In this document: positions 12,541 to 64,000 of the stretch, piece by piece
How positions within the stretch are numbered: the stretch's first letter is position 1
How the letters are laid out: each line of letters starts with the position of its first letter
Source of the DNA: a virus
IMG/VR virus record: IMGVR_UViG_3300027754_000055
Location: 45,653 to 109,652 of that record
Reading direction: 5' to 3' (one strand)
Length of the DNA stretch: 64,000 nucleotides
Program-made: the position numbers and the translations under genes
The notes under the pieces: model-generated
What the model was told of the DNA's origin: nothing
Seen by the model: the letters and a program-made list of their open reading frames with translations, nothing else
The model's database searches: none

Positions 12541-12546
12541 TACTTA
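12541..12546 (+). promoter_or_regulatory. putative late promoter TANTTA (representative instance)
   Basis: Same hexamer closely upstream of about 20 structural/virion-type starts, e.g. 3252, 8879, 37341, 38943, 40398, 48067 (+) and 880, 23713, 34549, 47839, 56138, 56625 (-). Confidence 0.6.
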
Positions 12547-12558
12547 AGATAAATTACA

Positions 12559-15500
12559 ATGCTTAAATTAGATTTAAAACTCACAAAAGAACAAAAAAGT
12601 ATTCGTTTAGGAAAAATAAGAGATCGTTTTGCTCCATATTTTGGTTTTGTTGTGTCAGGAAGTATATCGGAAGCACTCGCACTTAATCAAGCTATTAATT
12701 CCCAAAGACAAAATGAAATAAGTGGTGCAGTTAATCCAGCAGGTCGTCTTGCATTAACTCCTGACCGTAACGCAGCACAGGTTTTTAATATATTTCTTGA
12801 TGGTGGCTCAGGTGCATTAAAAGCCATAGCTGATCAACAACCAGCTAGTCCTGGTAGCAGCACGACTACAGATTCATCTATTAAAGGAAGAATTATTAAT
12901 CTTTTTACAGGTGCCGATACTCATGCTACACAAAATTTTTCAAATTATGTTCAAATGCATTATTGCAATAGCCAAAACACCACACAGGCCGGAGAAAAAA
13001 CATTTTTTCCAAATCTAGATAGAATTGGATTTAATAATAATGATGAAAGATCAAAACAAAAATTATCTGTTTTTAGGATGATTCATCCACTTTTAGCCCC
13101 AGGTGAAAAAAATGCAGATTTATTGACAATATTTTTTAATGCTTTCCCAACACTAGAATTAGTAAGAGCTACACCAGTACTTGATATTAAAATGTATTCT
13201 TCACGACAAGTATTTCAAGATGGTAGACTTGCTGCTATTTCTCTGCAAAAAACCTTAGAAGGTGCCGTTGAAGCACCTGATGGAACAAATCAAAATTCAG
13301 CTTTAAGGGCAATTGGTCTCGCTAACCAAACAACCTCTTCACAATTTGGAGATAGCTCATTAGATTTTCAAAATTATTCTATTGCCGGTATGGAACTATT
13401 CCGTGCTCCACAAACCATGGTAAATCCAGATGCAACAAAAATAAAAAGCAATTTTCTTGCTCCTGTCATTGACCCATTTCGACCATTGGCATCAATAAAA
13501 AGTTTTGATGTGGATGTTAAAAGTGCCGTGGGACTTATTTCAACTAAAACAGCAAAACTTGAAATTGTATTACACGATAGATCAAGAATGGGAGAATTTG
13601 CGGATATTATTAAACCGGATCGTTACGGCTCTTCTTTTATTGAAGTAGAATACGGATGGTCGCACCCAGACCAAATGGAACATGACCCAAATAGTTTAAA
13701 CGGAAATCCTTATGCCGATATATTAAATCTTACTCGTACAAAAGAACATTATAATATTACCAATAGTTCCTTTAGCTTTGATGAGGTCGGACAAGTTAAT
13801 ATATCCTTAAATCTAGTTACTCGTGGCGCTTCAGAGATGACAGAATTATCAATTACTGGAAACCAGGAATATTTAAAACAACAACTGAGGATTATAGAAA
13901 ATATATCAAAAACAATAAATCGTTTATCAGCTGTTGCTTTTGGAAATCAAAGAGAAACTCAGGGTGGTACAAATACGCATCGACAAGAAGTTAGAGGCCA
14001 TCAAATGCTGGGGGCTGTAGGCGATGCCACAAATATGCTTGTTGTGAACGCAGAATTACTGAATTCATTACGCCAATTAAGAGAATCATTAGATTCTCGT
14101 ATTACAGGGAGAGGAAATGCGGCATCATCGGACAATGTAAGAAGTGCTTCCGAACAAATGGTGCGTGAAATAAATTCTTTGTTAGGTCCAAGTACTTCTA
14201 CCAGCACAACTCAAGTAGTTACGGGAGCAATAGGAAATATACAGTCATCGGTCAATAGAGATATTTATGAATCTCTAAGAAATATAAATAAAACAGATCC
14301 TACTAATATGAATGATTTTGATGCAGATATATTTTTCAATAATATGCCTGAAAATCAAAAAAATTATTTTAAAAGCAATGCAAACGTATTAACAAGAAGA
14401 GATCCTCCAATTAGACGTGGAGCAGAAACAAACGAGAACAATCAATTATTAGATGTTGCGGAATTAAATCATAATCTTGGTAACAATAGAAGAAAAGTTG
14501 TATCGTTAGGAACTTTATTTACAGCATTTGTGGCTAAACCGTTAGCAATGATACAAGACACATCAACAGCACAAGATAAATTTGAAGAAGTGCAAGTTTA
14601 TTTTTATAATTTCAACAATAAAGCTAGCAGGATGAGTCACTGCAATATAAGTCAATTTCCAATAATGATAGATTTTTTTGCACGTGAATATTCACGATTA
14701 AGATTAGAGAATTTAAATAGATCAGTAAACATGTCGGTAATAGAATTTGTCAACTTTCTAGCTAATAAAATGGTCGATGACTCTATGAATCCAGCCTACG
14801 GCATAAGTGATTTATATAGATATAATAGTGAAAGTAGAGAATTAGAAATTGCTACGAGTGGACGCAATGAAGAAGTTAGACAAGATAATTTTAATCTTAG
14901 AATGAGAAATGTTATGGAAAGTAATAACATTGGACATTCGCCAGATTTCCAGATGCCACAGATAACATTAGACATTGAAGCTGTTCCTTATGCTTATGAC
15001 GAAAAAAAAACTATATTAAAACTACACATTTATGATAAAGCTTGTTCATCTACAGCACCTTTAAGAGAACTATTATCTTTATCAACAGAAAATCTCATGT
15101 CAACGCTTTCGTCGTTTCCCGCAAATCAAGAATCCGCAGAGGCGCAAGAACAAGCAAATGCTGCGGAAAGTAATTCAACACAAGCAAACGCTAGACATCA
15201 TCATCATGGTCATAGGCAAAATAGAAATCCAGCACCAGCAACAGTAGATCCACATCCATTGATGAGTGCATGGAGAAGCTCTTATCGAACTATTTTAGAT
15301 CATGCAAATGATATTGGAATGATCGTGCCTGTCAATGAGGCCGCTAGAAATTTATTAAATAATATTAATCAACAAATATCAAACATACCACAAAATCCAC
15401 AATTTAGGTTTACAGGTGGACCAAAGAGATTAAAGGAAATGGTTATGCAGTATGTGCCGCATATTATTTATGGGTCCATGTATTCAACAGTTAAATCTGC

Positions 15501-15918
15501 AAATTTATCGACACAGCAAAATGCACAGCTTGCATCGATTAATATGTTAAGAAGCCTTAACGGTGATCCAGTCGCAGCAAACGGCGAACAAGCTGGTGGC
15601 GTACCGTTGAGTGTCTATCCATGCGAATTATCTATTACAACTTTGGGATGCCCATTTATTCGTTACTCGCAGGAAATATTTGTTGATTTTAATACAAATA
15701 CTACAGCAGATAACATTTATTATGTAACGGGTTTATCTCATAAAATAGAGGCTGGTAACTATGAGACCACAATTAAACTTACTCCCAATGATGCTTTTGG
15801 TCAATATCGTAACATGATTTCTCAAATTAATTCAGCAGCTGGTTACTTAAGTGATGCAAATTCTCACGCCACCTCTGCACCTAATTCAACGACTTCACAG
15901 CAGCCATCTGGAAGATAA
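12559..15918 (+). CDS. baseplate hub-like protein (gp27/late control D-like)
   Basis: IEVEYGWSHP motif and C-terminal LSITTLGCP..IFVDF..DNIYYVTGLSHKIEAGNYETTIKL; follows the LysM gene. Confidence 0.65.
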   Translation: MLKLDLKLTKEQKSIRLGKIRDRFAPYFGFVVSGSISEALALNQAINSQRQNEISGAVNPAGRLALTPDRNAAQVFNIFLDGGSGALKAIADQQPASPGSSTTTDSSIKGRIINLFTGADTHATQNFSNYVQMHYCNSQNTTQAGEKTFFPNLDRIGFNNNDERSKQKLSVFRMIHPLLAPGEKNADLLTIFFNAFPTLELVRATPVLDIKMYSSRQVFQDGRLAAISLQKTLEGAVEAPDGTNQNSALRAIGLANQTTSSQFGDSSLDFQNYSIAGMELFRAPQTMVNPDATKIKSNFLAPVIDPFRPLASIKSFDVDVKSAVGLISTKTAKLEIVLHDRSRMGEFADIIKPDRYGSSFIEVEYGWSHPDQMEHDPNSLNGNPYADILNLTRTKEHYNITNSSFSFDEVGQVNISLNLVTRGASEMTELSITGNQEYLKQQLRIIENISKTINRLSAVAFGNQRETQGGTNTHRQEVRGHQMLGAVGDATNMLVVNAELLNSLRQLRESLDSRITGRGNAASSDNVRSASEQMVREINSLLGPSTSTSTTQVVTGAIGNIQSSVNRDIYESLRNINKTDPTNMNDFDADIFFNNMPENQKNYFKSNANVLTRRDPPIRRGAETNENNQLLDVAELNHNLGNNRRKVVSLGTLFTAFVAKPLAMIQDTSTAQDKFEEVQVYFYNFNNKASRMSHCNISQFPIMIDFFAREYSRLRLENLNRSVNMSVIEFVNFLANKMVDDSMNPAYGISDLYRYNSESRELEIATSGRNEEVRQDNFNLRMRNVMESNNIGHSPDFQMPQITLDIEAVPYAYDEKKTILKLHIYDKACSSTAPLRELLSLSTENLMSTLSSFPANQESAEAQEQANAAESNSTQANARHHHHGHRQNRNPAPATVDPHPLMSAWRSSYRTILDHANDIGMIVPVNEAARNLLNNINQQISNIPQNPQFRFTGGPKRLKEMVMQYVPHIIYGSMYSTVKSANLSTQQNAQLASINMLRSLNGDPVAANGEQAGGVPLSVYPCELSITTLGCPFIRYSQEIFVDFNTNTTADNIYYVTGLSHKIEAGNYETTIKLTPNDAFGQYRNMISQINSAAGYLSDANSHATSAPNSTTSQQPSGR

Positions 15919-19135: not shown

Positions 19136-21448
19136 ATGGCACCACCAAAAACAAAAAAACCACCACTATTATCAGATGAAGAATTGGCCAATGCAAACAA
19201 TGAGGACATTGATTTCTCGGCTGAATTAATCAAGCAAATCAATAAAGAAGCTGGCAATCGTATTGCTTTCAATCTTGGTACAGATGATGCGCCAACAAAC
19301 ATAAAACGCTGGATCTCAACCGGATCAAAACAACTAGATTACATTGTCTCAAATCGTCCAAACGGAGGTCTTGCAGAGGGTAGAATTATTGAAATTCAAG
19401 GCCCTGCTTCATGTCATGCCAAAGGTACTTTGGTTTTGAAATATGATGGCAATCCAATTAAAGTAGAAGAAGTAACCACTAAAACAGTTCTAATGGGACC
19501 AGACAGTAAGCCCCGAAAAGTTCTGGAGGTGCATTCTGGCAAAGATGAAATGTATCGTATTACTCCATTTACTGGTGCAAATCCATTTACTGTAAATCAA
19601 AATCATATTCTTACTTTAAAGAGAGCAGCAACCAAAAAGAAACTAGAAAAGCGTAACGGAGAAGTTGTTAACGTTACAGTTAAAGAATATGTAAATTCAT
19701 CACGTTCTTTTAAGAAGAACTATAAGCTTTATCGTTCAAACTTAATTGAATTTAATAAAGATAAAAAATCTACTTTAGATATTCCGCCATATATTCTTGG
19801 GCTTTTGATCGGTGACGGTTCTCTTTCAAAACAAAGAATAGAATTAACAACGGCAGATAATCCAATTGTTTCAGAATTTACGTCATACATCCTAGATTTA
19901 GGGCATTCCGTAGCTTTATACAATAAAGCTAAAACCAAAGCAATTGGTCTTTATGTTAATAAAAATAGACTAAGCCATAATATCCTCCAGCAAAAACTTG
20001 AAAGCATTGGTTTGCTTGGTAAGAAAAGTGGTGATAAATTTATTCCAAAAAACTACCAGACTAGTTCAAAAGAAAACAGATTGGAACTTCTAGCTGGTTT
20101 AATTGATACTGATGGATATAGAGATGTAAATGGCAGTTATGAATATTCAACTAAATCATTGCAGCTAAGTGAAGATGTGGCATTCGTTGCAAGAAGTCTT
20201 GGTTTTTCTGTAACAATATCAGATAAATTTGTTGCTGATCAATTATATTATCGTCTTTACATGTTTAATAATAAAATTGAAATTCCAAGTCGGCTCAGCA
20301 GAAAACAACAAAAAGTAAGAAATATAAAGAAAAATCTTTCTCTTGTTGGATTTAACATTGAAGCTGTTGGGGTGGATGAATATTATGGCTTTGCAGTAGA
20401 TTCTGATAATCTATTTCTTGGATATGATTTCTTAGTTCATCACAATTCTGGAAAATCACATATAGCATATGAGATCGCCAAATCGACCCAGCATATGGGT
20501 GGTATTGTTGTGTATATTGATACAGAGAATGCTACTTCAGTTGAAAACCTTGAAACTATTGGGATCGATATTCGCAAAAAATTTGTTTTTATCCAAGAAA
20601 CCTGTATTGAGGAAATTTTTAAGGTCATTGAAAGCACGATTGAAAAAGCAAGAAATCTTAAAGCAGATGTGCCGGTTACTATTATTTGGGATTCGGTAGC
20701 GGCTTCTGCTCCAAAAGCAGAGATTGAGGGTGATTACGACCAAAACACCATTGGGCTTGCTGCTCGTGTATTGTCGAAAGGTTTCCGCAAGATTACACAT
20801 GTGATTGGAGACAAAAATGTGTGTTTATTGCTGTTAAATCAGCAGAGAGTTAAGATCGGGGTCATGTTTTCAGACCCGACCACGACTCCTGGAGGCATGG
20901 CAATCCCTTATCACGCTTCTACACGCATCAAACTTACCGGTGGACAGCAAATTAAACAGACAATTAACGGCAAAGAAGCTGTTGTTGGCATCAACGTGAC
21001 ATGCAAGACTATCAAGAACAAGGTTGCACGCCCATGGAGAGAAGTAAGTTTTGAAATCCATTTCGGCAAAGGTATTCGTGAAGATGAACAGATTTTTGAC
21101 GAGTTACGTGAATATTGCGAAAAATGCAAAGACACTGTAATTGTAAATGGTATGAAGGTTAAAGTCCATGGTGGAGGGGCATGGAAATATTTCACAGTAA
21201 GTGATAACAGTACGGGTGAAGTAGTCCATGACATAACTTTTAATAAATCTGCATTTAGAGAGAAAGTAATTAACAATCCAGAAGTTCAAGTATATCTTAC
21301 GGGTTTAATGGATGCAGCATTTATTATGGGAAATGGAGATGATAATCATAAAACCATTGCCAGTATTGATTTAAATTCTGCCACAGAAGTTGAAGCAGTT
21401 AAAGTAGAGAGAACTGTTAAGACCGGGAAGAATCTTCTGCTTGATTAA
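19136..21448 (+). CDS. recA: RecA/UvsX-like recombinase containing an intein
   Basis: ISTGSKQLD, GRIIEIQGPAS|SGKS Walker A split by the intein, YIDTENA, WDSVAA, LNQQR..IGVMFSDPTTTPGG, KNKVARP. Confidence 0.92.
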   Translation: MAPPKTKKPPLLSDEELANANNEDIDFSAELIKQINKEAGNRIAFNLGTDDAPTNIKRWISTGSKQLDYIVSNRPNGGLAEGRIIEIQGPASCHAKGTLVLKYDGNPIKVEEVTTKTVLMGPDSKPRKVLEVHSGKDEMYRITPFTGANPFTVNQNHILTLKRAATKKKLEKRNGEVVNVTVKEYVNSSRSFKKNYKLYRSNLIEFNKDKKSTLDIPPYILGLLIGDGSLSKQRIELTTADNPIVSEFTSYILDLGHSVALYNKAKTKAIGLYVNKNRLSHNILQQKLESIGLLGKKSGDKFIPKNYQTSSKENRLELLAGLIDTDGYRDVNGSYEYSTKSLQLSEDVAFVARSLGFSVTISDKFVADQLYYRLYMFNNKIEIPSRLSRKQQKVRNIKKNLSLVGFNIEAVGVDEYYGFAVDSDNLFLGYDFLVHHNSGKSHIAYEIAKSTQHMGGIVVYIDTENATSVENLETIGIDIRKKFVFIQETCIEEIFKVIESTIEKARNLKADVPVTIIWDSVAASAPKAEIEGDYDQNTIGLAARVLSKGFRKITHVIGDKNVCLLLLNQQRVKIGVMFSDPTTTPGGMAIPYHASTRIKLTGGQQIKQTINGKEAVVGINVTCKTIKNKVARPWREVSFEIHFGKGIREDEQIFDELREYCEKCKDTVIVNGMKVKVHGGGAWKYFTVSDNSTGEVVHDITFNKSAFREKVINNPEVQVYLTGLMDAAFIMGNGDDNHKTIASIDLNSATEVEAVKVERTVKTGKNLLLD
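19412..20446 (+). mobile_element. intein with LAGLIDADG homing endonuclease (345 aa) in the RecA P-loop
   Basis: Starts CHAKGT; block B TVNQNHIL; LGLLIGDG and LAGLIDTDG motifs; ends VHHN followed by Ser. Confidence 0.93.
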
Positions 21449-27299: not shown

Positions 27300-27548
27300 A
27301 TGTCACGAGTATTTATGTTAAATATTGATGCAGTATACAAAGCAGTTGAAATCTTAAATAAAGAAGGCGATCTATCCGTTGAATACGTTGGATGTGATGG
27401 GGAATTGAAAAATCGATTCGTCGCTAAATCAAATGGCTACTCTTGTTTTGGCGCAACTGCACTAGAAGCAACACTGAAACTTTTCCGGGCAAGATACCCA
27501 AATATTGGATTAAATTTTTTTCATAAAAATGATGGCGGCTGGGTGTGA
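27300..27548 (+). CDS. hypothetical protein
   Basis: 82-aa ORF within a co-oriented cluster. Confidence 0.55.
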   Translation: MSRVFMLNIDAVYKAVEILNKEGDLSVEYVGCDGELKNRFVAKSNGYSCFGATALEATLKLFRARYPNIGLNFFHKNDGGWV

Positions 27549-27843
27549 ACCATCAACAATATATTTTGTGAAAAGAAAAGAAAAAATAAGAAATGGCAAA
27601 TTATATCTTTGCAAAAGCTCTTGGAATACATTGCCCATTACCAAAGACATCGAAAATGCCTACTCTTTATTTATAATTGAATCAATAATTGGATATATTA
27701 TACCAGAGCATATGTTTGCCATTCTAGAACATAGAAACCATACAAGAAATTCCGTAATATGCAAAGTCTTATCAGAAGATGGTATAATAGGTTGGTCAGT
27801 CTTTGATAAACAAGAACTAATATTAGTAAATCATCCTCAATAA
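27529..27843 (+). CDS. SH3-like 'GKLY...G.IGW' paralogue
   Basis: IRNGKLYL ... CKVLSEDGIIGWS. Confidence 0.65.
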   Translation: MMAAGCEPSTIYFVKRKEKIRNGKLYLCKSSWNTLPITKDIENAYSLFIIESIIGYIIPEHMFAILEHRNHTRNSVICKVLSEDGIIGWSVFDKQELILVNHPQ

Positions 27844-27977
27844 TTCAGTATTAAATATTCTATTTATTGATATAATCAAAATGGTTTTATTGATTGGAAA
27901 ATTGTACGAAATTAATGTTAAGAAATCATATTCATTCTATGCCTCAAAGAATAAATTTTTTGCATTTAGTCAATTAC

Positions 27978-29117
27978 TCACAGGACAAGCCTGTGAGCTT
28001 GTAAATCAGTTGCCCGATTCACGTCTGGGTGTTTGACTTCACCCTGTTCCAAAGTTTTATTTGGAAATAGTTGTTCGGAAATATAACGATCCCTTATATT
28101 AATTGCTGCATTTATATCCGAATTAATTAATAATTTACATCTTGAACAATTGTAAAGACCTTTGTTCCTTGCTTGCTTATCAATCATTCCGCAACAAGAG
28201 CAAATCTGTGAAGTAAATCTAGCATCTACGAAGTTTATCTTTACTCCACTTGCTTCTGCTTTATATTTTAAAAGCATTTCAAATTGTTTAAATCCCCAGT
28301 TTGAAACTACTTTATTTGATTTTTTGTTATATTTCTTGCTTTTTATTTTTGTTAAATTCTCTAAAACATAAATGGAAACATCAGGATCATTTGCTAGCTT
28401 TTTAGCTAGACAATGGAGAAAATTATTGCTAAACCGCTTCTCTTTTCCGCTTAATGCTTTTAATAGCCTTTTAGCAGAATGAGTGCCTTTTGCTTGTAAT
28501 TTACTTTTTAAATACAAATGTTTTCTTTTATTTTTTCTTAACGATTTACCAGAATACAATTCTCCTTCACTGGTTGCTATCGTATTTATAATTCCTCGAT
28601 CTAATCCAACAGTTTTACCTGCTGCTCTGTTTGAAGTTTCTTTATTCTCAAACAAAAAAGTAAAATATAATTCTTTCCCTTTCAAGGAAAGATATCCTGT
28701 CTTTAAAAGATTCCAACTTTTAAAATAATCTTTCGAATAATCAGATAATTTTATGATTGTTTTAATTCTTTTATTAACAGAAGAAATGGTTAATTGCTCT
28801 CCTCTTAAAGTAAAAGTTCTTTGATCATATCTTATCGAACTTGTTTGCTTCTTTTTGGGAATATGTTTCTTTCTTTTATTTTTACAAGACTCAAGAGCCA
28901 TGTCTCTTGCAGCTTGGATCAAAGCAGTTGGTAATTCGAAAGTTTCTTTTGCTTGGATATATGTTTCTTTGTGTGCTTTGAGCTTTGAGGTTGAATTATT
29001 TTGAATGCTCCAAGCAGAATAGAAATTAAAAACATTAGCGAATGTTTCCATTGTTTTTAATAATGTATTTTTATCATTCTCTGAAATGTTGAGTTTGATT
29101 TTAATAGCTCTTCGCAT
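27978..29117 (-). CDS. tnpB: RNA-guided endonuclease TnpB
   Basis: RuvC GLDRG / VLENL / NSDINAA and zinc finger CSCCG..CSRC; the ORF runs into the right-end hairpin. Confidence 0.92.
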   Translation of the reverse strand: MRRAIKIKLNISENDKNTLLKTMETFANVFNFYSAWSIQNNSTSKLKAHKETYIQAKETFELPTALIQAARDMALESCKNKRKKHIPKKKQTSSIRYDQRTFTLRGEQLTISSVNKRIKTIIKLSDYSKDYFKSWNLLKTGYLSLKGKELYFTFLFENKETSNRAAGKTVGLDRGIINTIATSEGELYSGKSLRKNKRKHLYLKSKLQAKGTHSAKRLLKALSGKEKRFSNNFLHCLAKKLANDPDVSIYVLENLTKIKSKKYNKKSNKVVSNWGFKQFEMLLKYKAEASGVKINFVDARFTSQICSCCGMIDKQARNKGLYNCSRCKLLINSDINAAINIRDRYISEQLFPNKTLEQGEVKHPDVNRATDLQAHRLVL

Positions 29118-29136
29118 ATTTATAAGTATTAGCAAC

Positions 29137-29547
29137 ATGGAAAAAACTACAAATAATCATACAACTCACATTCTTGGCTTTCATATTATTTTTTGTCCAA
29201 AATATAGAAGCATGCTTTCCGAAGGTCATTGTATTGCTTTGAGAAAATGTTTTTATGAAATAGCAGAAGAATATGATTGGAAAATAGAAAGTTTAGAAGT
29301 TGACTTGGATCATGTAAACTTATTTATCCAAGCGAACCCTACAGATAGTCCGGCTGATATTGCCAGAACATTTAAAAGCATATCAGCTATATTTTTATTT
29401 ACAAAATTTCCCAAATTAAAGGAAAGAAAGTTTTGGGGTTCTGGTCTATGGTCGAGAGGGACATATTATTCAACTGTTGGCAAGGTTGCAGAAGACGTTG
29501 TAAGGAATTATATTGAATCGCATTCATCTCACAGGACGAGCCTGTGA
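29137..29547 (+). CDS. tnpA: IS200-family Y1 transposase TnpA (HUH motif altered to HVN)
   Basis: FHIIFCPKYR, DHVNLFI, LWSRGTYYSTVG, catalytic YIE. Confidence 0.9.
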   Translation: MEKTTNNHTTHILGFHIIFCPKYRSMLSEGHCIALRKCFYEIAEEYDWKIESLEVDLDHVNLFIQANPTDSPADIARTFKSISAIFLFTKFPKLKERKFWGSGLWSRGTYYSTVGKVAEDVVRNYIESHSSHRTSL

Positions 29548-29760
29548 GTTTTCTGCTCATATCAATAAAAATCTAATCATTTTATTTGATAGCGGAACCA
29601 TTGGATTATATCTCGGTAGCACAAACGAACAAATTTTTGAAAGTGAAGAACCAGATCATATTTTTCTGATATCTGATAAAATTATTCATTTTTCATATTT
29701 TTTCCATGAGCATGTTAATTTCGTTCTTGTATCTGGACAAAATGTAAAAAATATTATCAT

Positions 29761-29789
29761 TTGACAACCGAAAAAAATCTATATAATAT
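29761..29789 (+). promoter_or_regulatory. sigma70-type early promoter (representative instance)
   Basis: TTGACA-N17-TAATAT ending 6 nt before the ATG. Confidence 0.65.
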
Positions 29790-29795
29790 CGTTAT

Positions 29796-30062
29796 ATGGA
29801 AAAATATATAACAGAATTTACAGAGCCTCATATCGAATCATTCCTAAGAAAAATGTATCATGAATTCTGGGACGAATGGCTCGGACAACTAATAATCGAA
29901 CTAGATCAACAAGGATTCGATATTACTCATTTCCCAAATGATGATTATACAAGAAATGTAAGAAACCCTCACGCAATCCGCATCGGAAGAACTATTGCAC
30001 TGGAAATGCAGCGCATGCAAGACAAAATTAAACAACTAGAAGAGAACCAAAATGGGCGTTAA
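29796..30062 (+). CDS. hypothetical protein, leaderless start
   Basis: TTGACA-N17-TAATAT-N6-ATG. Confidence 0.65.
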   Translation: MEKYITEFTEPHIESFLRKMYHEFWDEWLGQLIIELDQQGFDITHFPNDDYTRNVRNPHAIRIGRTIALEMQRMQDKIKQLEENQNGR

Positions 30063-30387
30063 ACCAACAACTAAAATTAAATTCGGAGCAATATACTCCA
30101 AACAAGAATTAACTGATGCAAATATTGATCCTACATACTATGAAAACAATAACTTTACCGTAAGCATCTCTCGAATAGACGATACCCATAAATATGTTTT
30201 ATGGGCCTCCAATAGCTTTGTCGATATTACAAATGGATATGATTATCAACAACCAATCCGGCCAATTCTTAAACTATATAAAACCGAAGAAGTACTGGAA
30301 TTCATTAAAGAAATCAATGACTTTGTCACCGAAACAAAGCTACCGCAAAAAACGCCAGAAGCATTGATTATTGTAGAATTTAATTAA
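30052..30387 (+). CDS. hypothetical protein
   Basis: 111-aa ORF overlapping the upstream gene. Confidence 0.6.
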   Translation: MGVKPTTKIKFGAIYSKQELTDANIDPTYYENNNFTVSISRIDDTHKYVLWASNSFVDITNGYDYQQPIRPILKLYKTEEVLEFIKEINDFVTETKLPQKTPEALIIVEFN

Positions 30388-30520
30388 TTCTTTGGCGTTG
30401 TGATGGCAGTCTCAAGATTCTGCACAGCAACCTTCAAAGGACCAATAGATTCCGCCGATGGGCCTTTGGAAGCCATCGTATCCACGACTTTTTTCAATTC
30501 ACCAAATTCGTTAAATCCAG

Positions 30521-30660
30521 GTGAACTACTCACAGGACAAGCCTGTGAGCTTCTAAAGAGTTTATCTCTAGAACTTTAAGCACTTCATCGGAAATTTCCA
30601 AGTTTGCACTTGGTTTTATATTTCCTCCATGCTCGTAATCGTTCGTTCCGAACGATCTAT
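30521..30660 (-). ncRNA. omega-RNA (reRNA) scaffold overlapping the tnpB 3' end
   Basis: Stacked hairpins (ATCGTTCG/CGAACGAT, CCAAGT/ACTTGG, right-end hairpin), conserved in the copy at 52936-53075; predicted guide CTGGATTTAACGAATTTGGT. Confidence 0.7.
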
Positions 30661-31780
30661 CAACAAGGTTTAAGCCTTGCTTAAGAATATTTTTTGATGC
30701 ATTCCAATCCCTCTGTTGAACTACTCCGCAACCTTTGCAAATCCATTCTCTGTCCTTGAGTTTTAGATTTTGGTTGATGTAGCCACAGTCCGAACAAGTT
30801 TTAGAACTTGGAAAAAATCTATCAACTTTGATTAATGTTCTTCCGTACCACTTGCACTTATATTCTAACAAATTAACAAAACTACTCCAAGAACTGTCTT
30901 GAATGGCTTTTGATAATTTATAGTTTTTCAACATGTTTTTAATACTTAAATCTTCTATACAAATCACTTGGTTTTCGTGAACTAATTTCGAAGAAAGTTT
31001 ATGCTGAAAATCTTTTCGGAGATTGGTAATTCTTTCGTGAATTTTTGCTACTTTTAGCTTTTGTTTTTTTCTTCTATTTGAACCTTTCAATTTTCTTGAA
31101 AGATATTGCTGTTGTTTCTTTAGTTGGTTTGAATGCTTAACAAGATATTTTGGATTCGATATCTCTTCTCCATTAGACAAAAAAGCGAAACTCTTGATTC
31201 CAAGATCAACTCCAACAGCATTGTTTATTTTTGGTAAGTTATGAATGGTTTCTTCTACAGAAATAGAAACAAAATACTTGTTGGTTGGTGTTTTGGTAAT
31301 GGTTGAAGTTGTGATCCTGCCTTTGATTGGTCTGTGCTGTTTAATTTTAATTCCGGTTTTAAACTTTGGAATATGGAGCATTCCATTTTCGATTGAAAGG
31401 CTTTGCGGAATACAAATAGATTGTTTTCCAAATTTCTTTTTGAAATTTGGAAAACCACTTTGCTTTTTGAAAAATCTTTTGTAAGCAATATCTAGATTTT
31501 TAAGTGCTACTTGAAGGCTTTGTGAGTTTGCATCTTTTAAAAATTTAGTTTCTGGGTTTTGCTTTAAAAGAGTTAAAGCTTTTGCATTATCAAAATAAGA
31601 AAGAAAATTTTTTGTTCTTTCTTCTTCGATTTTTTCTTTATTTTTTAGAAAATGTTCTTTTTCTTTATTGAGAAAATAATTCCAAACAAAACGAGAACAT
31701 CCAAACATTTTAGCAAACAAATTTTGCTGTTCTGTGTTTGGATAGATTCTAAATTGGTATGTTTTGTTTTGCAGAACCAT
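30530..31780 (-). CDS. tnpB: RNA-guided endonuclease TnpB
   Basis: N-terminal YQFRIYPN..FGCSRFVWN HTH, RuvC GVDLG / CIEDL / QRDWNAS, zinc finger CSDCG..CKGCG. Confidence 0.95.
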   Translation of the reverse strand: MVLQNKTYQFRIYPNTEQQNLFAKMFGCSRFVWNYFLNKEKEHFLKNKEKIEEERTKNFLSYFDNAKALTLLKQNPETKFLKDANSQSLQVALKNLDIAYKRFFKKQSGFPNFKKKFGKQSICIPQSLSIENGMLHIPKFKTGIKIKQHRPIKGRITTSTITKTPTNKYFVSISVEETIHNLPKINNAVGVDLGIKSFAFLSNGEEISNPKYLVKHSNQLKKQQQYLSRKLKGSNRRKKQKLKVAKIHERITNLRKDFQHKLSSKLVHENQVICIEDLSIKNMLKNYKLSKAIQDSSWSSFVNLLEYKCKWYGRTLIKVDRFFPSSKTCSDCGYINQNLKLKDREWICKGCGVVQQRDWNASKNILKQGLNLVDRSFGTNDYEHGGNIKPSANLEISDEVLKVLEINSLEAHRLVL

Positions 31781-31877
31781 TTACTTTATACCTAATATTA
31801 AGTATGGTGTAAATTTATTTTTCTATATGAATCGCATTCATCCCACAGGACGAGCCTGTGGGTTTTCTGCTCATGCA

Positions 31878-32165
31878 ATAAAAACTGAAATCCGGCACAA
31901 ATGCACTTATTTGGATAATTTTCTTGATCCTTTTACGTGGAATAGAATCAGCAACAAAGAAATGGTTTGCTGATTTCTCTTGCATATTGATGCCTTCCAT
32001 GTCTATTACAACAATAGAAAGATTCTGATGTTTTTCCATTAGCCGTGGATCTTCCAATATCTCTTCCATTGCGACTCCAATAGAGTTTGTAAGTTTAGCT
32101 TGTGGATATATGCCAGCTGTCGTCAGCAATAAACCGGGGTTATTTGTAACATGATAATAGATCAT
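31878..32165 (-). CDS. ART/Tpt1-like small protein; 3' end interrupted by the IS
   Basis: YYHVT..GIYP..LT..A..IVVID..IP..I pattern; the ORF reads into the IS left end (stop at 31815); pre-insertion end reconstructs as ..FSFYLDLTNLVN*. Confidence 0.5.
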
Positions 32166-32185
32166 TGATTATTTCCTTTCAAAGA

Positions 32186-32368
32186 TTATAGCGCATCGCT
32201 ACGATATTTTAGAATTAGTTTTTCAAGCTCTTCACCGGCCCAGCCTCCAACCAGCATACCTGTATCAGCATTTCGACTGAGTAAAGGCCCATTTTGGTGC
32301 ATTCCCCATGAACGAAGAGTGACGATTAACTCTGCTGCTGCCTCTAGAATCTCGTTGTTATTATTCAT
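32186..32368 (-). CDS. hypothetical protein, leaderless start
   Basis: TTTACT-N17-TATGAT-N6-ATG. Confidence 0.6.
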   Translation of the reverse strand: MNNNNEILEAAAELIVTLRSWGMHQNGPLLSRNADTGMLVGGWAGEELEKLILKYRSDAL

Positions 32369-32471
32369 AATTCCATCATATCAGAATGGGCAACAGAAGT
32401 AAATGGTTTAGTTGTTTTAACATGATTTACTTATTTTCACAATTGATTTTTCAACCATAACTGTTTCAACC

Positions 32472-32873
32472 TCAACTACCAAACAATCCATAACCACCAA
32501 TATTGATGTAGCTGTTGCTCTCGACAATCTGATATTCAAACATTGTGTCTCCAAGTTTGCAGATAAACAAGAAGATCTGAGCAAACAGTTCTTGGTCAAG
32601 ATAACAAGTATCTTGTTCAAGACCATCCTCATAAAAATCAAGAAACCCAAGATCCAAAAGCTTCGTCTTGTATTCTCGCTTCATGCGACAGTCTTCATAT
32701 TGCTCGCAAACCTCATTAATAAAATCAAAACCAACAATAAATCTGCCAACTTGATATGCCGCCAGCAACTCACCATTGGAAAGACTTGAGTTGATGACAA
32801 CAGTTTGAGATTGACCATGCCCATCACCAGATGGGTCGCCCAGAATCAAATCAATGCGGTGTGTGTTATTCAT
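32472..32873 (-). CDS. hypothetical phage protein, leaderless start
   Basis: GDPSGDGHG and IGGYGLF motifs; TTTACC-N17-TATGAT-N6-ATG. Confidence 0.7.
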   Translation of the reverse strand: MNNTHRIDLILGDPSGDGHGQSQTVVINSSLSNGELLAAYQVGRFIVGFDFINEVCEQYEDCRMKREYKTKLLDLGFLDFYEDGLEQDTCYLDQELFAQIFLFICKLGDTMFEYQIVESNSYINIGGYGLFGS

Positions 32874-34543: not shown

Positions 34544-34558
34544 ACCGATAAATACAAT

Positions 34559-37257: not shown

Positions 37258-37351
37258 GTTTTCTTATGCGATTGTAGCCGTTTAAAAACAATAAATAAAT
37301 CATAAAACTAAGAATATTTTCAGCTAGCTAACATCCATTATACTTATTGTT

Positions 37352-38068
37352 ATGAGAATATTTGATATATTATTTGAACAACATGATATTAGTGCAAAAA
37401 AACCACGTAGAACAATTTCAGAGGTTGGCTCTAAAGGAATTGTTCCAGTGCATCTTGAAAATGATCAGCGAGTTTTACTTTTAAATAGCAAAAACATCGC
37501 AGACGCCACAAAAAATGCAAAAAGTAAAATTCAATTTATGAGAATGTTTATAAATGGCGTTGCAGAAAAATATACAGATTCAACTCCGTATGACGTAAAT
37601 GCTCAATGTATAATCGGACAACTTAATTATAAAAAAATCTCAAATGGGCTCTATAAAGTCAATTCTGTAGCTGCAATAAAAAGTTACGGCTCTTTGCTAT
37701 ATGAATTATTAATGCAGTTTATCTCCGCAGAAAACGGTTATATTACTCCATCGGTTCCAATAGAACAAAAAGCACTGGACGTTTATCATAGATTTATGAA
37801 CAGATCTGACATAGAGAAAAAACAAATACAAGATATCAATAGAGTCGCATATTTCGTTCGCAAAAAACAAATCAGCAATCAATACCCAGAATCAAAACAA
37901 GAAAATAAACCATTTTATTTAGGTTTTCAAATGCAAGGCGCACCATCATTCACTCCAATAAAAGAAATACTTGGATCAGCAATGGATGAGTTTAATGTTT
38001 CCGATCAAGAAATAGCTAAAGCAGCAAGCGATTGGTTTAATAAAAGATATAAGCCAGAAGATCAGTGA
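37352..38068 (+). CDS. putative GNAT-like protein with a virion-type N-terminus
   Basis: YKVNSVAAIKSYGSLLYELLMQ..ITPS..KALDVY resembles acetyl-CoA-binding motifs; TACTTA-N5-ATG; starts MRIFDILFE. Confidence 0.55.
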   Translation: MRIFDILFEQHDISAKKPRRTISEVGSKGIVPVHLENDQRVLLLNSKNIADATKNAKSKIQFMRMFINGVAEKYTDSTPYDVNAQCIIGQLNYKKISNGLYKVNSVAAIKSYGSLLYELLMQFISAENGYITPSVPIEQKALDVYHRFMNRSDIEKKQIQDINRVAYFVRKKQISNQYPESKQENKPFYLGFQMQGAPSFTPIKEILGSAMDEFNVSDQEIAKAASDWFNKRYKPEDQ

Positions 38069-40178: not shown

Positions 40179-40408
40179 TATCGCTCGCTCTACTGGATAG
40201 CTTCTTCAACAAGCTCCTATAAAGCTCATTAGCGGCCTCTTCTAGCTCTTCCTCATAACTAATCAATCTTTCGTATAGCCAGCTTCCCTGGCATATCTGG
40301 GGCGGTTCTGAAGCACCTCGTGTGCTTTCACAATTCACTGCCAAAAAAATACCATGAAAGTTATGACGTATCTCCTGTGTAAAGCGATTTTAGCAAATAT
40401 TTAATTTT

Positions 40409-46606: not shown

Positions 46607-47833
46607 TTATTTTTTATCTTTTTTTGCTAATTTTGCTAATTTATCGAATAGTTTAGTTTGCATGATAACATCAAATTTTTGTGGTTTGCCATTATCATAT
46701 GGGATATAATTTTCTTCTGGCTCAAGTGGTTCTATTTCTTTTAGATCACGTTCTTCTGTGCCATGATCAAATTTCTTAACAATAGAAGCAAAACCGCCTG
46801 TTCCATATGGTTTTTCAGGCATTTTTTTATCTAATTCTGCTGGTAGATAATCCACTAATTTTCTTTTGGTTGATTCTTTATCGGATTTTGACATTTTAAT
46901 TTCCTTTGATTCGTTTCGGTAGTAGCCGGGGCCTGAACCTTTTTTATAAATATCGACTGATCCAGGGACATGTTTTACTGGATGAGCCACAGTACCCATA
47001 AATCCGGCACGTGTTGGTACATCATCTTCTTCGTCTAATTCTTTTTTATAGTCTGTTTGCCCGAATTCTTTTTTTATCCAATTCACAGGATTCACCAAAT
47101 GGTTAAACACGACATCACGGTTAGTTTGGCCTCTGTCTGTGGGGGTTGTTTCTTTCCAGCGGTTCAATGTTTTATTTCTTTTTTGAGTAAGTTTCAGATT
47201 GTTATCTGTAATTTCATCATCCATTGGATCATACATGCTGGTATCTTTTGAGTTTAGGCTCATGTTTAGCTCTTCTGGTTTGTCATAATGCCCATGACCA
47301 AAAGGCTCTCCACGCACGGCTTCACGTCCACCGGGAAGCAATTGTGGTACATTATATCTTTCTTCTTCTGGCGCATCAGGATCTCTATCTTCGTCTTCAT
47401 CATCTGGTATATGCTCTATTGGATTAGATAAAGTATTCATTGCGGGAAACCCTTGTAAATCTCTATAGTTTCCATCTGATGGTCCACGCTCAGTGACATA
47501 ATAATACGAAGGTTCTATATCATTTTCTGGATCTAGCAGTTGGTCACGAACTTCGTCTTGTCCTGGCAAAAGGTGAGGACGATCATCATATACTTCGGAT
47601 GATTCCAATGAATCATTTTCATCACGATCCGATCCTTTTTGAGCACGCACAGCAGGCCACATAGAAGGCTCATTAGGGAGGTCTTCTTCTGGATCGACCA
47701 ATCCCGGCCAGATCTCCGAATCTGCCAGCTGATGCCTATTGCCGAAGCCGTAAGCGCCACCTTGGAACGTACCTGCGCCAGAGAAGTCGCCAGAATTTTC
47801 TTTATATAATAATTTGCTAAGTTTTAATGACAT
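46607..47833 (-). CDS. acidic, likely disordered protein (probable virion/internal protein)
   Basis: D/E/P-rich; TATTTA-N5-ATG; starts MSLKLSKLLYKE. Confidence 0.7.
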   Translation of the reverse strand: MSLKLSKLLYKENSGDFSGAGTFQGGAYGFGNRHQLADSEIWPGLVDPEEDLPNEPSMWPAVRAQKGSDRDENDSLESSEVYDDRPHLLPGQDEVRDQLLDPENDIEPSYYYVTERGPSDGNYRDLQGFPAMNTLSNPIEHIPDDEDEDRDPDAPEEERYNVPQLLPGGREAVRGEPFGHGHYDKPEELNMSLNSKDTSMYDPMDDEITDNNLKLTQKRNKTLNRWKETTPTDRGQTNRDVVFNHLVNPVNWIKKEFGQTDYKKELDEEDDVPTRAGFMGTVAHPVKHVPGSVDIYKKGSGPGYYRNESKEIKMSKSDKESTKRKLVDYLPAELDKKMPEKPYGTGGFASIVKKFDHGTEERDLKEIEPLEPEENYIPYDNGKPQKFDVIMQTKLFDKLAKLAKKDKK

Positions 47834-47872
47834 ATGTTTAAATATGCCAATTGTTGAGGAATGTAATGGTTT

Positions 47873-49436: not shown

Positions 49437-50111
49437 TTAATTCGATTTTATTATTTCAAACGGCCTATTGATATCGAGCCTGACTTGATAAGCCTTGTTT
49501 CCGCTCAGAACTGTTATTTTCTTATTCGTCCAGCTGCACGTACTGTAAAATTTTTTTCTTTTTAATATTTTTATATTTGTCACAATAGCCTGAGTTTTAC
49601 TAAAAACAATCAAATCACCAGATTCAATTTCATTATGCTGTTCTACTATTTCGATTGGAATAATATGTTTCAGCTTATAAAACCAAGTTATATTTGTTTT
49701 TTGAGTTGATTCCCAAGGTTCATAAGTTTCTTTTGTATCATGATTATATTTTTTAAATATTTCAATTCCTACGGCACGAATATAGAATTTTTTTCTCAAA
49801 GTGAATAGGACTTCGGCTTCTTGTTTGTTGCTTATTAGTTTATATTTTCCATCATGCAGAACAATGAAAGATTTTATTTTTGCAACATAGTTTTCAATAT
49901 CTAAATCTTCAAATAATTCATCTAATTTGATACCATAATTACTGATAATTGTATCTTTTTTATATGACTTAGAAAACATGTCCAAAACAAGAACTTGTTT
50001 CCACCAACTGTGCAGATCGATATGATCAAAATTACAAAGCAAAAATGCTTCTGTTAATATCCTTGGTTTTACTAACCTACCGAAATCATTCAAATCTATC
50101 TTTTTGCTCAT
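49437..50111 (-). CDS. hypothetical protein
   Basis: TACTTA-N6-ATG at 50111. Confidence 0.65.
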   Translation of the reverse strand: MSKKIDLNDFGRLVKPRILTEAFLLCNFDHIDLHSWWKQVLVLDMFSKSYKKDTIISNYGIKLDELFEDLDIENYVAKIKSFIVLHDGKYKLISNKQEAEVLFTLRKKFYIRAVGIEIFKKYNHDTKETYEPWESTQKTNITWFYKLKHIIPIEIVEQHNEIESGDLIVFSKTQAIVTNIKILKRKKFYSTCSWTNKKITVLSGNKAYQVRLDINRPFEIIKSN

Positions 50112-50136
50112 GAATAATAAGTAGCATAAAATAAAA

Positions 50137-51373: not shown

Positions 51374-51636
51374 TTTTCATCTTCCTCTTGTATGCTAAGA
51401 GTTAGGATATCGCCAATAACTTCATGAATGTCCTGCCGCATAATTAAAGACAATGCCTCATCTTCGTCTATAGGATGACCAAGTTCGCTAGAAACACTAC
51501 GAATAAACTTCTTCATACCAGATAGAAGAATGTTTCTGGCGGTTGCGTGATTCATTTTATATCCTAAATCAGTCATCTTAGCGGCAATTGTGCGATAGTC
51601 TTCACCTTCAGTTATAGTTATATATTTGTTATTCAT
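51328..51636 (-). CDS. sigma region 4.2-like HTH protein
   Basis: EGEDYRTIAAKM...NHATARNILLSGMKKF; ATGA-coupled to the sigma gene. Confidence 0.55.
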   Translation of the reverse strand: MNNKYITITEGEDYRTIAAKMTDLGYKMNHATARNILLSGMKKFIRSVSSELGHPIDEDEALSLIMRQDIHEVIGDILTLSIQEEDEKCQQVNQTVNQPHQT

Positions 51637-52379
51637 TTACTTGTTTCACTTTCCATTTTTATAATTTTATCACTTTCGAAGCCATACCGTTGCAACAAGA
51701 TGTGTTTTTCTCTTGTGCTTAGCTCTTTAAATGCCTTAACGCTTGCCAAGATTATTTTCTTTTTATCAAAACCAAGTGAAAAATCCGAAGTATCGCTTGG
51801 TATAATATCTCTTAGGGATTTATTAGCACTGTCGCCAGATGAAGAAATTGGCATATCTAGACAAATATGATTCCAGGTTTTAGTTTTATTTGCAGCTTCG
51901 ATCGAAGCAAACATTTTTTCTGTCATCCCGATTTCTTCGAGAGTTTCTTTGGAAATATCTCTAACTAGGATTGATCTCTCTTTTGCTAAATTTTCTAATT
52001 TATTTCTTGCTGTTCGGATATGAGACGGAATATGAAAGATAGGCTCTTCGTCCAATAAATAAGAGTTTACACTTTGACGAATCCACCAAGTAGCATAAGT
52101 TGAAAACTTAAAACCAAGTTCTGGTTTATAACCATCGATAGCATCGAACAATCCAAGATGGCCTTCTTGCAGTAAATCATTGCGTAATGTCTTGTGTTTT
52201 GGCTTTTTGCTATAAAATTTATTAATAACGAATGTAACAAGCTTTGCATTTCTTTGCGCTAAATCATTACGAATTTTTTGGTTAGAAGTAATAAGTTTAC
52301 CTTCCTCGCTAAGAACCTTGGTTGTTTGATAGAATTTAAATAAATCTATATCATCTATCGTTGCTTCTTTTTCTTTCAT
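51633..52379 (-). CDS. RNA polymerase sigma-70-family factor lacking the region 4.2 HTH
   Basis: Region 2 NAKLV..DLLQEGHLGLFDAIDGY..GFKFSTYATWWIRQ; region 3 LDMPI; ends LSTREKHILLQRYG. Confidence 0.88.
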   Translation of the reverse strand: MKEKEATIDDIDLFKFYQTTKVLSEEGKLITSNQKIRNDLAQRNAKLVTFVINKFYSKKPKHKTLRNDLLQEGHLGLFDAIDGYKPELGFKFSTYATWWIRQSVNSYLLDEEPIFHIPSHIRTARNKLENLAKERSILVRDISKETLEEIGMTEKMFASIEAANKTKTWNHICLDMPISSSGDSANKSLRDIIPSDTSDFSLGFDKKKIILASVKAFKELSTREKHILLQRYGFESDKIIKMESETSK

Positions 52380-52794: not shown

Positions 52795-53231
52795 TTGATC
52801 AAAAAGATTATTGCCATTGCTGCAATAAGTTACCAGAAGAAGGAAATATAATCCTGCCTTCTTCTGGTATCCTTCGTGGCAAAGAAAAAACTAAATTTAC
52901 TGGTATGATCATTGTTAAAAACAGACCCATTTGTGGTGAACTACTCACAGGACAAGCCTATGAGCTTCTAAAGAGTTTGTCTCTAGAACTTTAAGCACTT
53001 CACCGAAAATTACCGCTGGCAAGCCAGTTGGTTTTATATTCTCTCCATGCTCGTAATCGTTCGTTCCAAACGATATCGGAAAAATTAATTGCTCCGATAA
53101 TTTTAATTATTATGCAAAATATGTTTTTGTTTAAATTATTTTAAATTGAATCGCATTCATCCCACAGGACGAGCCTGTGGGTTTTCTGCTCATGCAATAA
53201 ATGCAATAGATATTTTGAATTTTTCTATTGA
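52791..53231 (+). pseudogene. zinc-finger gene interrupted by the non-autonomous element
   Basis: Joining 52935 to 53197 gives MIDQKDYCHCC...RPIC-D-KCNRYFEFFY*, restoring the second CxxC. Confidence 0.8.
52936..53196 (-). mobile_element. 261-bp non-autonomous IS200/IS605 derivative carrying an omega-RNA
   Basis: Left end matches 31829-31877; right ~140 bp homologous to 30521-30660; TTTAT target; no internal ORF. Confidence 0.9.
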
Positions 53232-56601: not shown

Positions 56602-56636
56602 AATAATTTAATCCTTTTGCTGGATAAGTATTGAAT

Positions 56637-62400: not shown

Positions 62401-62663
62401 GTAAGATTGCCGTCATGATTTCCAAGAATCAAATACAATGGAGCTATTTCTGCCAACTCACGAAACATCCATGTAATTTTATCAATCACTTCTGGTGTAA
62501 TGCCAGTAGTTTTTGTGTGAAAAAAATCTCCTGTGCCAATAATATAATCTGGTTTTACATCTTCACGTAGTTGTGAAAAAAAGTTATTAAATGCATTGGT
62601 ATATTCTTCATGACGTGTAATACCACGCCAGTGAACATCACTAAATTGAACTATTTTTGTCAT
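59451..62663 (-). CDS. fused Mre11/SbcD nuclease-Rad50/SbcC ATPase (gp47+gp46-like)
   Basis: FSDVH, GDFFH, GNHD, LFHG, LGDIH, YPGS; Walker A GNNRLGKSS, coiled coil with hook-like PCG..SC, signature ASGMEK, QDEG, ITH. Confidence 0.9.
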   Translation of the reverse strand: MTKIVQFSDVHWRGITRHEEYTNAFNNFFSQLREDVKPDYIIGTGDFFHTKTTGITPEVIDKITWMFRELAEIAPLYLILGNHDGNLTNENRQDTISPIIAAMNNKNITLFKQSVNHTIPNTNINLCVLSCFDKDGWQSVSPKQDMINIALFHGSVTGCEVDSDWVMSNGEVDRSIFEKYHFAMLGDIHKVQFLGHRPHSGVTRDLKPWIGYPGSFIQQNYGEMKTKGYLVWDIRSANDWDVSFKDIPNEYSFNTVPWMGSVQETVDSAIDVCNGNLLNKRIRIASSEKIFDVQIKELHQKLKNSLKASEVVIKADVATNISELDIAGGIQKISLRNDPSTLFDLYDNFIVRDYKSTLSEDQKIKAKDYIKASLEKVRSSEEDSVRDVSWTIKKLEFSNLYRYGENNVIDFEKIRGITGIFGNNRLGKSSIVGALMFGLYNTTDRGPVKSAYIINKNKTAGSSSVTIEVSGVEYVIERKVEKAKKRGGIFDEEKAATTLKLSKVNKDGSREELINENSDTRTDTDKVIRKLIGNSQDFLLTAFSNQGGMNKFIDEGATQRKSILNRFLDLDIFEKLNKMASEELSGYNAKIKKFQNVDWDQAGKLLQEAVQSKQDNITTLKTELEEVKTSRENLLMFLQQRGIVKLNNIQKTLEKSNRAVEDIERKISLAAAEKITVEQKRNIFENNLKQYQEQIKLLSVDDLKAKKELLQTIGKQYHETKARLGAEKQKLDSQVKSIRKLDLVPCGTSFQSCHYIKDSHEDKNLHETQKEEVLKLIASFDGVREEYEILQNEKIEEGIQKHNELQLTIQSNSIKLEAAIKQIEQINGNIESLTNTLDVSKKEQDKLKIELESFGTKSFNEKIEEEKELARKISQLEGQLQTIYQNIGADKNKLEHLNAEAAEAKEIIEEQRVYDSIVQAFSKNGIPAFILKSQLPAINAELNNILAGIVPFRIFLETEVGSNTLDVFIEDKDSRRVIELASGMEKMIASVAIRVALISLSSLPKPDIFIQDEGMGVIDGNNISKVIELLNTIKNRFKAILIITHVDEIKEAASTILSIHDNGSESFISN

Positions 62664-63878: not shown

Positions 63879-64000
63879 TTGCATGAGCAGGAAACCCACA
63901 CCCTCGTGGTGTGGGAGGAATGCGAATCAATAATTTCATACATTGAAGTTTTTTCAAAAAAGATACATACTTATCTGTATGCCAAGCATAACGTACAATA
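63879..64000 (+). mobile_element. left end of another IS200/IS605-family element (truncated by the window); probable tnpB start at 63979
   Basis: TTCAT|TTGCATGAGCAGGAAACCCACACCCTCGTGGTGTGGGAGGAATGCGAATC is homologous to the other left ends; TACTTA-N5-ATG (MPSITYN). Confidence 0.75.

Follow-up and report, generated by a model that had tools for sequence, protein, structure and literature searches.

A TA[C/G/T]TTA upstream element of freshwater jumbo phages, a candidate promoter, precedes the tnpB genes of their IS200/IS605 elements

A previous reading, made from the letters alone, of a 64,000-nt stretch of uncultured freshwater phage DNA (IMG/VR virus record IMGVR_UViG_3300027754_000055, positions 45,653 to 109,652; hereafter the window) proposed that the tnpB and tnpA genes of its insertion sequences (IS) are wired to the phage late promoter. 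We have followed up this proposal by computational analysis and we observed that the hexamer TACTTA stands before the tnpB gene in all three IS200/IS605 elements of the window (IS#1, IS#2 and IS#3), and that it belongs to an upstream element, TA[C/G/T]TTA, shared with related phages. On sequence grounds, we consider it probable that TA[C/G/T]TTA is a -10-type promoter read by a phage sigma factor and that an IS lineage circulating among phages uses it for tnpB, presumably late. The part of the proposal that concerns tnpB is sustained at this level, with the motif inside all three IS and the motif class conserved; the part that concerns tnpA is weak.

In each of the three elements the hexamer is part of the IS itself and lies on the 3' side of its left-end hairpin (Table 1). 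The positions given in the sequence-only reading for TACTTA at tnpB1, tnpB2 and the third tnpB start, and for TATTTA at tnpA, all proved to be exact. The third start, then considered probable, indeed has TACTTA-N5-ATG, and the full gene is found in another contig, L078, which carries a complete copy of IS#3 and encodes a TnpB of 392 aa. When the stretches from hairpin to ATG of the three element types were compared, they could not be aligned save at the hexamer. It is therefore very improbable that the AT-rich left ends hold TACTTA by chance or through shared descent of the three elements, all the more since their TnpB proteins belong to different subfamilies and since three matches at most 20 nt from three starts have an estimated chance of ~1e-7. 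What speaks for such a coincidence is that the left ends are similar across the three elements, that right-end sequences are also common to them, and that the raw count of TACTTA-N5-ATG in the window is not significant alone (3 versus 0.93 expected, with 5 of 100 shuffles reaching 3). All three of these copies coincide with real starts. A role of the hexamer as a transposition signal was also considered and rejected: it lies 3' of the hairpin, unlike the TnpA recognition and guide sequences of IS608, which are at or 5' of the hairpin.

A scan of 27500-32300 for sigma-70-type promoter consensus gave 19 sites, versus 20.7 in shuffles, and none of them is positioned for tnpB1, tnpB2 or tnpA. Contigs from three RNA libraries (X22-X24) overlap parts of tnpB1, of tnpB2 and of the gene 37352-38068; such contigs show no starts, strand or level, DNA is possibly present in them, and stretches that they leave without cover carry no meaning.

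With regard to tnpA, the 19-bp spacer between tnpB1 and tnpA had been described as holding back-to-back copies of the motif, TATTTA being the one that faces tnpA. The two copies are where they were said to be, but TATTTA has little weight, as it is a common hexamer (82 copies in the window, with a fourfold upstream enrichment). In addition, this TATTTA is conserved only within the block running from the tnpB1 promoter to its ATG and is inseparable from that block. The tnpA half of the observation is thus weak, and transcription of the interrupted phage gene at 27881, which has the same direction, could alternatively read through into tnpA. We also observed that the left-end hairpins of IS#1 and IS#2, when followed along the + strand, the one opposite to tnpB, precede TTTTCTGCTC and score as intrinsic terminators. 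A terminator of this kind could bring tnpA transcripts to an end and prevent antisense read-in.

The sequence-only reading had called for a comparison of the motif with its AT-rich background. In the window, TACTTA is under-represented, with 22 copies in 128 kb of strand compared with 38 ± 7 in dinucleotide shuffles. Despite this overall depletion, 8 of the 22 copies occur in sense orientation at most 40 nt before a start codon, a 15-fold enrichment (p = 2.7e-8) that ranks first among 4096 hexamers, the second being AAGGAA, which resembles a Shine-Dalgarno (SD) sequence. Twelve of the 22 copies are intergenic and 11 of these are aimed at a gene.

Two relatives were found via their terminase, L001 (record G001, 66 kb) and L003 (record G002, 113 kb, 52% GC). 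Since these records reach a CheckV completeness of only 27% and 33%, respectively, they are jumbo phages. TACTTA is upstream of genes in 5 of 13 cases in G001 and in 5 of 15 in G002, where the top hexamer by far is TAGTTA (12 of 20, p = 4.5e-15). The reverse complements of the motif show no upstream enrichment in G001 and G002. When the window and the two relatives are taken together, 43 of 114 TA[CG]TTA copies are in sense orientation at most 60 nt before a start, versus 13 for the reverse complement.

The motif also follows the genes from one phage to another. Among 23 orthologue pairs with aligned N-termini, its presence agrees in 21 (6 both with and 15 both without; Fisher one-sided p ~5e-4, some window genes being counted twice). 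The spacings to the ATG are often equal (5/5, 5/5, 6/5, 23/22/15) at a protein identity of just 34-63%, and the gene before the terminase is preceded by TACTTA, TACTTA, TAGTTA and TAGTTA in four phages. As judged from these comparisons, TA[C/G/T]TTA is a real, conserved and orientation-specific upstream element of this phage clade.

The motif was said to precede structural genes. This agrees with what is found in G002, where it stands before virion and packaging genes, namely two tail-sheath genes and those for the tail tube, the major head protein and the terminase large subunit (TerL), as well as the gene before TerL. The orthologues of SbcCD and of the primase are devoid of the motif in all three phages, and several replication-side genes have instead sites resembling TTGACA-N17-TATAAT. 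Because the motif heads virion genes while SbcCD and primase are without it and replication-side genes have TTGACA-type sites, it appears from the sequences that the motif marks a class, including virion genes, that is separate from host-type promoters.

A candidate reader is encoded in the window itself, as a sigma-70-family factor of 248 aa. When aligned to RpoD from E. coli (the aligned part stopping at about residue 569), this protein ends at about residue 579 of 613, before the recognition helix of region 4.2, and its orthologues in G001 and G002 stop at the same place, so that the truncation is kept in three phages. We are thus dealing with a phage sigma-family protein that has no -35 recognition part. 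In the aligned motif contexts we saw no conserved upstream partner (-35), which leaves a short conserved element without a -35, placed before structural genes among others. Such a one-piece promoter fits a sigma factor that lacks the helix reading the -35. The sigma gene's own upstream region has TG-n-TATGAT, a host-type extended -10, which is what one would expect if the two genes classes formed a cascade.

Could the hexamer instead be a promoter of host type that a sigma factor of the host recognizes, phage and IS being both adapted to the same host polymerase? Host IS could then hop into phages. We find this unlikely: TACTTA and TAGTTA end in A, whereas sigma-70-type -10 elements need T at -7, and the hexamer has no accompanying -35. 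Moreover, a truncated sigma factor is encoded by the phages themselves, the genes behind the motif are not those behind the TTGACA class, and the IS left end is absent from 185,579 prokaryote genomes save one tiny contig. In favour of a host-type promoter, sites resembling TTGACA-N17-TATAAT do exist before 29796, 62689-63666 and other genes, TTGACT is enriched in G002, and the close relatives of TnpB1 (61-65% identical) bear bacterial labels from metagenome-assembled genomes (MAG).

The distance from motif to ATG ranges from 5 to ~60 nt with a cluster at 5-6, a single case being below 5 (at 2). Since many copies are just 5-6 nt from an ATG without SD, the hexamer might act on the RNA or as a regulatory signal (a processing site, a translation signal for starts without SD, or an operator) and not as a promoter. 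This is quite unlikely in our opinion, because the spacing extends to ~60 nt and the more distant copies usually have an SD-like AGG or GGAG between hexamer and ATG, as would a promoter followed by a leader. Besides, the 5-nt floor and the cluster at 5-6 are as expected of a -10 element starting transcription at the A of the ATG, and the motif, being in one piece and having T-A at positions 1-2, has the form of known phage sigma promoters.

Several observations weigh against a late promoter read by the phage sigma factor. TACTTA is found 73 nt before an SSB-like gene and the TATTTA variant 5 nt before an RNA-ligase gene; "late" is a fair label by analogy, taken solely from the identity of the downstream genes. 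The link between the motif and the sigma factor (51633-52379) is circumstantial, and a host promoter of this form is a less likely alternative. Finally, in the other IS-bearing phage contigs, taken as a pool, the orientation bias is weak (9 versus 6 for TACTTA, 8 versus 6 for TAGTTA); therefore, use of the motif by every IS-carrying phage cannot be claimed.

Promoter function, reading by the sigma factor, late expression and a homing role of TnpB are what we infer from these data, and the mechanism that we favour can be described as follows. TA[C/G/T]TTA, in the form of TACTTA here, would be a one-piece -10-type element without -35, proper to a clade of freshwater jumbo phages, and would most likely be read by the host core RNA polymerase associated with the phage sigma factor. 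From those copies that are only 5-6 nt away from the ATG, mRNAs with no leader or almost none would result. An IS200/IS605 lineage circulating among these phages would carry the hexamer between its left-end hairpin and tnpB, so that TnpB would be made together with the sigma-dependent class of structural genes, presumably late, at a stage when many phage genome copies, the phage RecA and SbcCD would be present. A further-reaching version, which we put forward only tentatively, is that the IS lineage lives only in freshwater jumbo phages and has captured their sigma promoter; TnpB, and possibly the guide RNA of mini-elements via TAATTA, would be made in the replication/packaging phase only and would serve as a homing drive, guided by RNA, between the genomes of co-infecting phages.

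The elements themselves are typical of IS200/IS605. They have subterminal imperfect palindromes at the left and right ends and no terminal inverted repeats, and the left flanks of nearly all copies end in a TTTAT-like sequence, in keeping with the target motif of this family. The hairpins of IS#3 and IS#2 differ by a compensatory GG/CC swap. The ends of IS#1 were set by an empty-site joint, 27967->29564, present in contigs of two runs; no target duplication was seen at the junctions, and excision of IS#1 in silico rejoins a phage open reading frame (ORF; 27881-27967 + 29564-29764, + strand). This rejoined ORF is a member of the LIGKLY paralogue family. For IS#2, the junctions of IS#1 served as the model in placing the ends, and its removal likewise rejoins a phage ORF (32165-31877 + ~30520-30385, - strand). 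Because a phage ORF is interrupted by IS#1 and another by IS#2, and IS#1-free contigs occur in two runs, the present insertions of both are, to judge by these junctions, recent. In a contig of run X1, 1158 nt are skipped inside IS#2 (30656-31815), which makes it a deletion derivative en route to a mini-element.

A Pfam search over the window identified two TnpB proteins and one Y1 TnpA. Both TnpB1 and TnpB2 combine the OrfB_IS605 nuclease with the zinc ribbon Cas12f1-like_TNB, and the RuvC motifs of TnpB2, D (GVDLGIK), E (IEDL) and D (RDWNA), align to those of a solved TnpB. The start of tnpB1 is ATG 29117, as ~35 homologues all begin 1-3 residues before a conserved R-x-[IL]-K-[IV]-K-L; a longer ORF starting at 29138 was dropped since the N-termini of the homologues support 29117. 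In TnpA, the HUH motif reads H-V-N, the second His being replaced by Asn (D-H-V-N, codons 29310-29321), whereas TnpA of L087 and L094 retains H-I-H and solved TnpA structures also have His. From its sequence, TnpA of the window is placed in the IS200/IS605 family but may be impaired. We also noticed a database protein of 397 aa, P0127, in which an N-terminus of the type MIKIYSILFE..., like that of the phage's tagged proteins, is joined to a part that shares 97% identity with TnpB1. Either a fused ORF or an erroneous gene call where an element has inserted may explain this protein.

To what extent is this lineage proper to phages? The left-end pattern has 11 matches in IMG/VR and 20 in metagenome contigs; in the 185,579 prokaryote genomes it has one, a mini-element on a 1.7-kb MAG contig. 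The flanks of the other copies are unlike those of the window, and the elements therefore occupy many different sites in different phage contigs. The hexamer is kept among these copies. In the IS#1-type copies L087 and L094, the TACTTA-N5-ATG block is unchanged while the tnpB coding sequence is ~80% identical; the diverged tnpB3-type copy L079 has kept TACTTA-N6-ATG; and in four other tnpB2-type copies the aligned position is occupied by TACTTA or TATTTA while the flanks vary. No hexamer was seen in L090, a GC-rich element whose left end is similar. More distant tnpB homologues in other viral contigs (at most 52% identical) have TA[CG]TTA within 110 nt upstream in 4 of ~35 cases, and in 3 of these it is far from the ATG. 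When IMG/VR was scanned with patterns for close relatives of TnpB1 and TnpA, none turned up; the TnpB1 relatives at 61-65% identity have labels of bacterial MAGs (e.g. P0131, 64%, labelled as a Leptospiraceae MAG).

It had been suggested that these elements are phage-adapted and not recent pick-ups from a host. The lineage is present in phage contigs, is essentially missing from prokaryote genomes and keeps the hexamer, which speaks for adaptation to phages; the insertions themselves are recent, split ORFs and are polymorphic, and in this respect the suggestion needs to be qualified. Taken as a whole, the IS lineage looks phage-resident from the distribution of its sequences.

Protein-free mini-elements of ~265 bp accompany this lineage. 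Their left end is followed by a TAATTA that hardly varies, by a small hairpin and then by a scaffold made of the tnpB 3' part and right end, and they are common in freshwater phage contigs (L066-L070, L075, L077, L080, L081, L084, L085, L089, L091, L093 and L097). What they retain of tnpB2 is its final ~140 nt together with the right end, a putative guide-RNA region.

The window is found in part in twenty-odd freshwater DNA runs, one of which (X1) matches the region nearly letter for letter, and a megablast search with 27500-32500 against 50,697 phage records gave zero matches. It also encodes a terminase large subunit (53232-56123, -) and a RecA (19136-21448, +), each carrying an intein with a LAGLIDADG homing-endonuclease domain, a fused SbcCD (59451-62663), a piece of a family-A polymerase and the SSB-like gene. 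The terminase orthologues of L001 and L002 are much shorter and hence intein-free.

Table 1. Positions of the IS elements, their genes and hairpins, the sigma-factor gene and the motif copies in the window
Feature	Position	Strand	Remarks
IS#1, IS605-type, 1596 bp	27968..29563	-	left end, tnpA reversed, 19-nt spacer, tnpB1, right end
Left-end hairpin of IS#1	29528..29548	-	overlaps tnpA 3' end
Right-end hairpin of IS#1	27976..27997	-	overlaps tnpB1 3' end
tnpB1, 379 aa, Cas12f-like divergent TnpB	27978..29117	-	Pfam OrfB_IS605 and Cas12f1-like_TNB; PDB matches
TACTTA before tnpB1	29128-29123	-	5 nt to ATG 29117-29115
tnpA, 136 aa, Y1 HUH transposase	29137..29547	+	Pfam Y1_Tnp 1.4e-28; aligned to solved TnpA structures
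TATTTA facing tnpA	29117..29122	+	14 nt to ATG 29137; weak candidate
IS#2, tnpB-only	30521..31876 (ends ± ~2 nt)	-	left end, tnpB2, right end; span given by homology to L007 and L073
Left-end hairpin of IS#2	31842..31862	-	
tnpB2, 416 aa, ISDra2-like TnpB	30530..31780	-	Pfam HTH_OrfB, OrfB_IS605, TNB; E = 3.5e-77 to chain 8h1j
TACTTA before tnpB2	31804-31799	-	18 nt to ATG 31780; between left-end hairpin and gene
IS#3, left part	63879..64000	+	hairpin 63895-63915, TACTTA 63968-63973, tnpB3 ATG 63979; continues beyond the window
TACTTA before tnpB3	63968-63973	+	5 nt to ATG 63979
Protein-free mini-element	52936..53201	-	left end, TAATTA, tnpB 3'/right-end scaffold
Sigma-70-family factor, 248 aa	51633..52379	-	Pfam Sigma70_r2 only; phrog_351
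TACTTA	56625..56630	-	23 nt before 149-aa gene heading terminase operon; TACTTA in G001, TAGTTA in L002 and G002
TACTTA	50118..50123	-	6 nt before 224-aa gene 49437-50111; G001 orthologue TACTTA-N5-ATG
TACTTA	37341..37346	+	5 nt before gene 37352-38068
TACTTA	12541..12546	+	12 nt before 1119-aa gene 12559-15918
TATTTA	47839..47844	-	5 nt before 408-aa gene 46607-47833; G001 orthologue TACTTA-N5-ATG
TATTTA	34549-34554	-	N5-ATG before RNA-ligase gene
TATTTA	40398-40403	+	N5-ATG before 655-aa LRV-repeat gene; G001 orthologue TATTTA-N5

Literature searches gave nothing relevant on TACTTA as a phage promoter and no paper on IS200/IS605 elements with a phage-type promoter. The present case suggests that a whole IS lineage has adapted to phage life by using the phage promoter grammar, that it is polymorphic in natural populations and that it is accompanied by guide-only parasites. 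If this is true, it would be a transposon counterpart of late-expressed homing endonucleases, and RNA-guided nucleases would take part in the competition of phage versus phage, as homing endonucleases do in T-even phages. In addition, TA[C/G/T]TTA, paired with a truncated sigma factor, would constitute a new candidate class of phage promoters, useful for the annotation of uncultured jumbo phages.

In phage T4, late promoters (TATAAATA) consist of a -10 only and are read by a truncated sigma factor, gp55, and the expression of homing endonucleases such as I-TevI falls in the late phase, in which copies of the genome and recombination proteins are abundant. The nuclease considered here differs in being an RNA-guided TnpB, carried by a transposon with its own ends, and not a protein-guided endonuclease of an intron or a free-standing one. 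Among known promoter systems, the nearest is found in phiEco32, whose middle and late promoters have a one-piece AATGTA centred at -11.5 and no -35, and in which gp36, a phage protein of the sigma-70 family, acts on the host core polymerase while early genes use the host sigma-70 (PMC12276001). The likeness lies in the one-piece element and the phage sigma-family protein; the differences are that the consensus here is TA[C/G/T]TTA, that the phage is a jumbo phage with a freshwater host, and that recognition by the sigma factor is only predicted. To our knowledge, no mobile-element genes belong to the gp36 regulon of phiEco32.

In cyanophage A-1(L), tnpB transcripts rise strongly in the course of infection and the gene is identical to five host copies (bioRxiv 10.64898/2026.02.14.705889). 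This identity makes it a recent host pick-up, with no phage promoter motif reported. The situation here is the opposite, since no host copy was found and the motif is of phage type. In bacteria, TnpB of IS200/IS605 elements, the ancestor of Cas12, is an RNA-guided homing nuclease that keeps the transposon in place. The elements of the window resemble ISDra2, IS608 and those of G. stearothermophilus in combining a Y1 TnpA with TnpB, in their subterminal hairpins, in their TTTAT-like left target motif and in a putative right-end guide-RNA scaffold that overlaps the 3' end of tnpB. They differ from ISDra2, IS608 and the G. stearothermophilus elements in that their lineage is found in phage contigs only, in that the motif before tnpB is of the phage class, and in the many guide-only mini-elements that accompany them.

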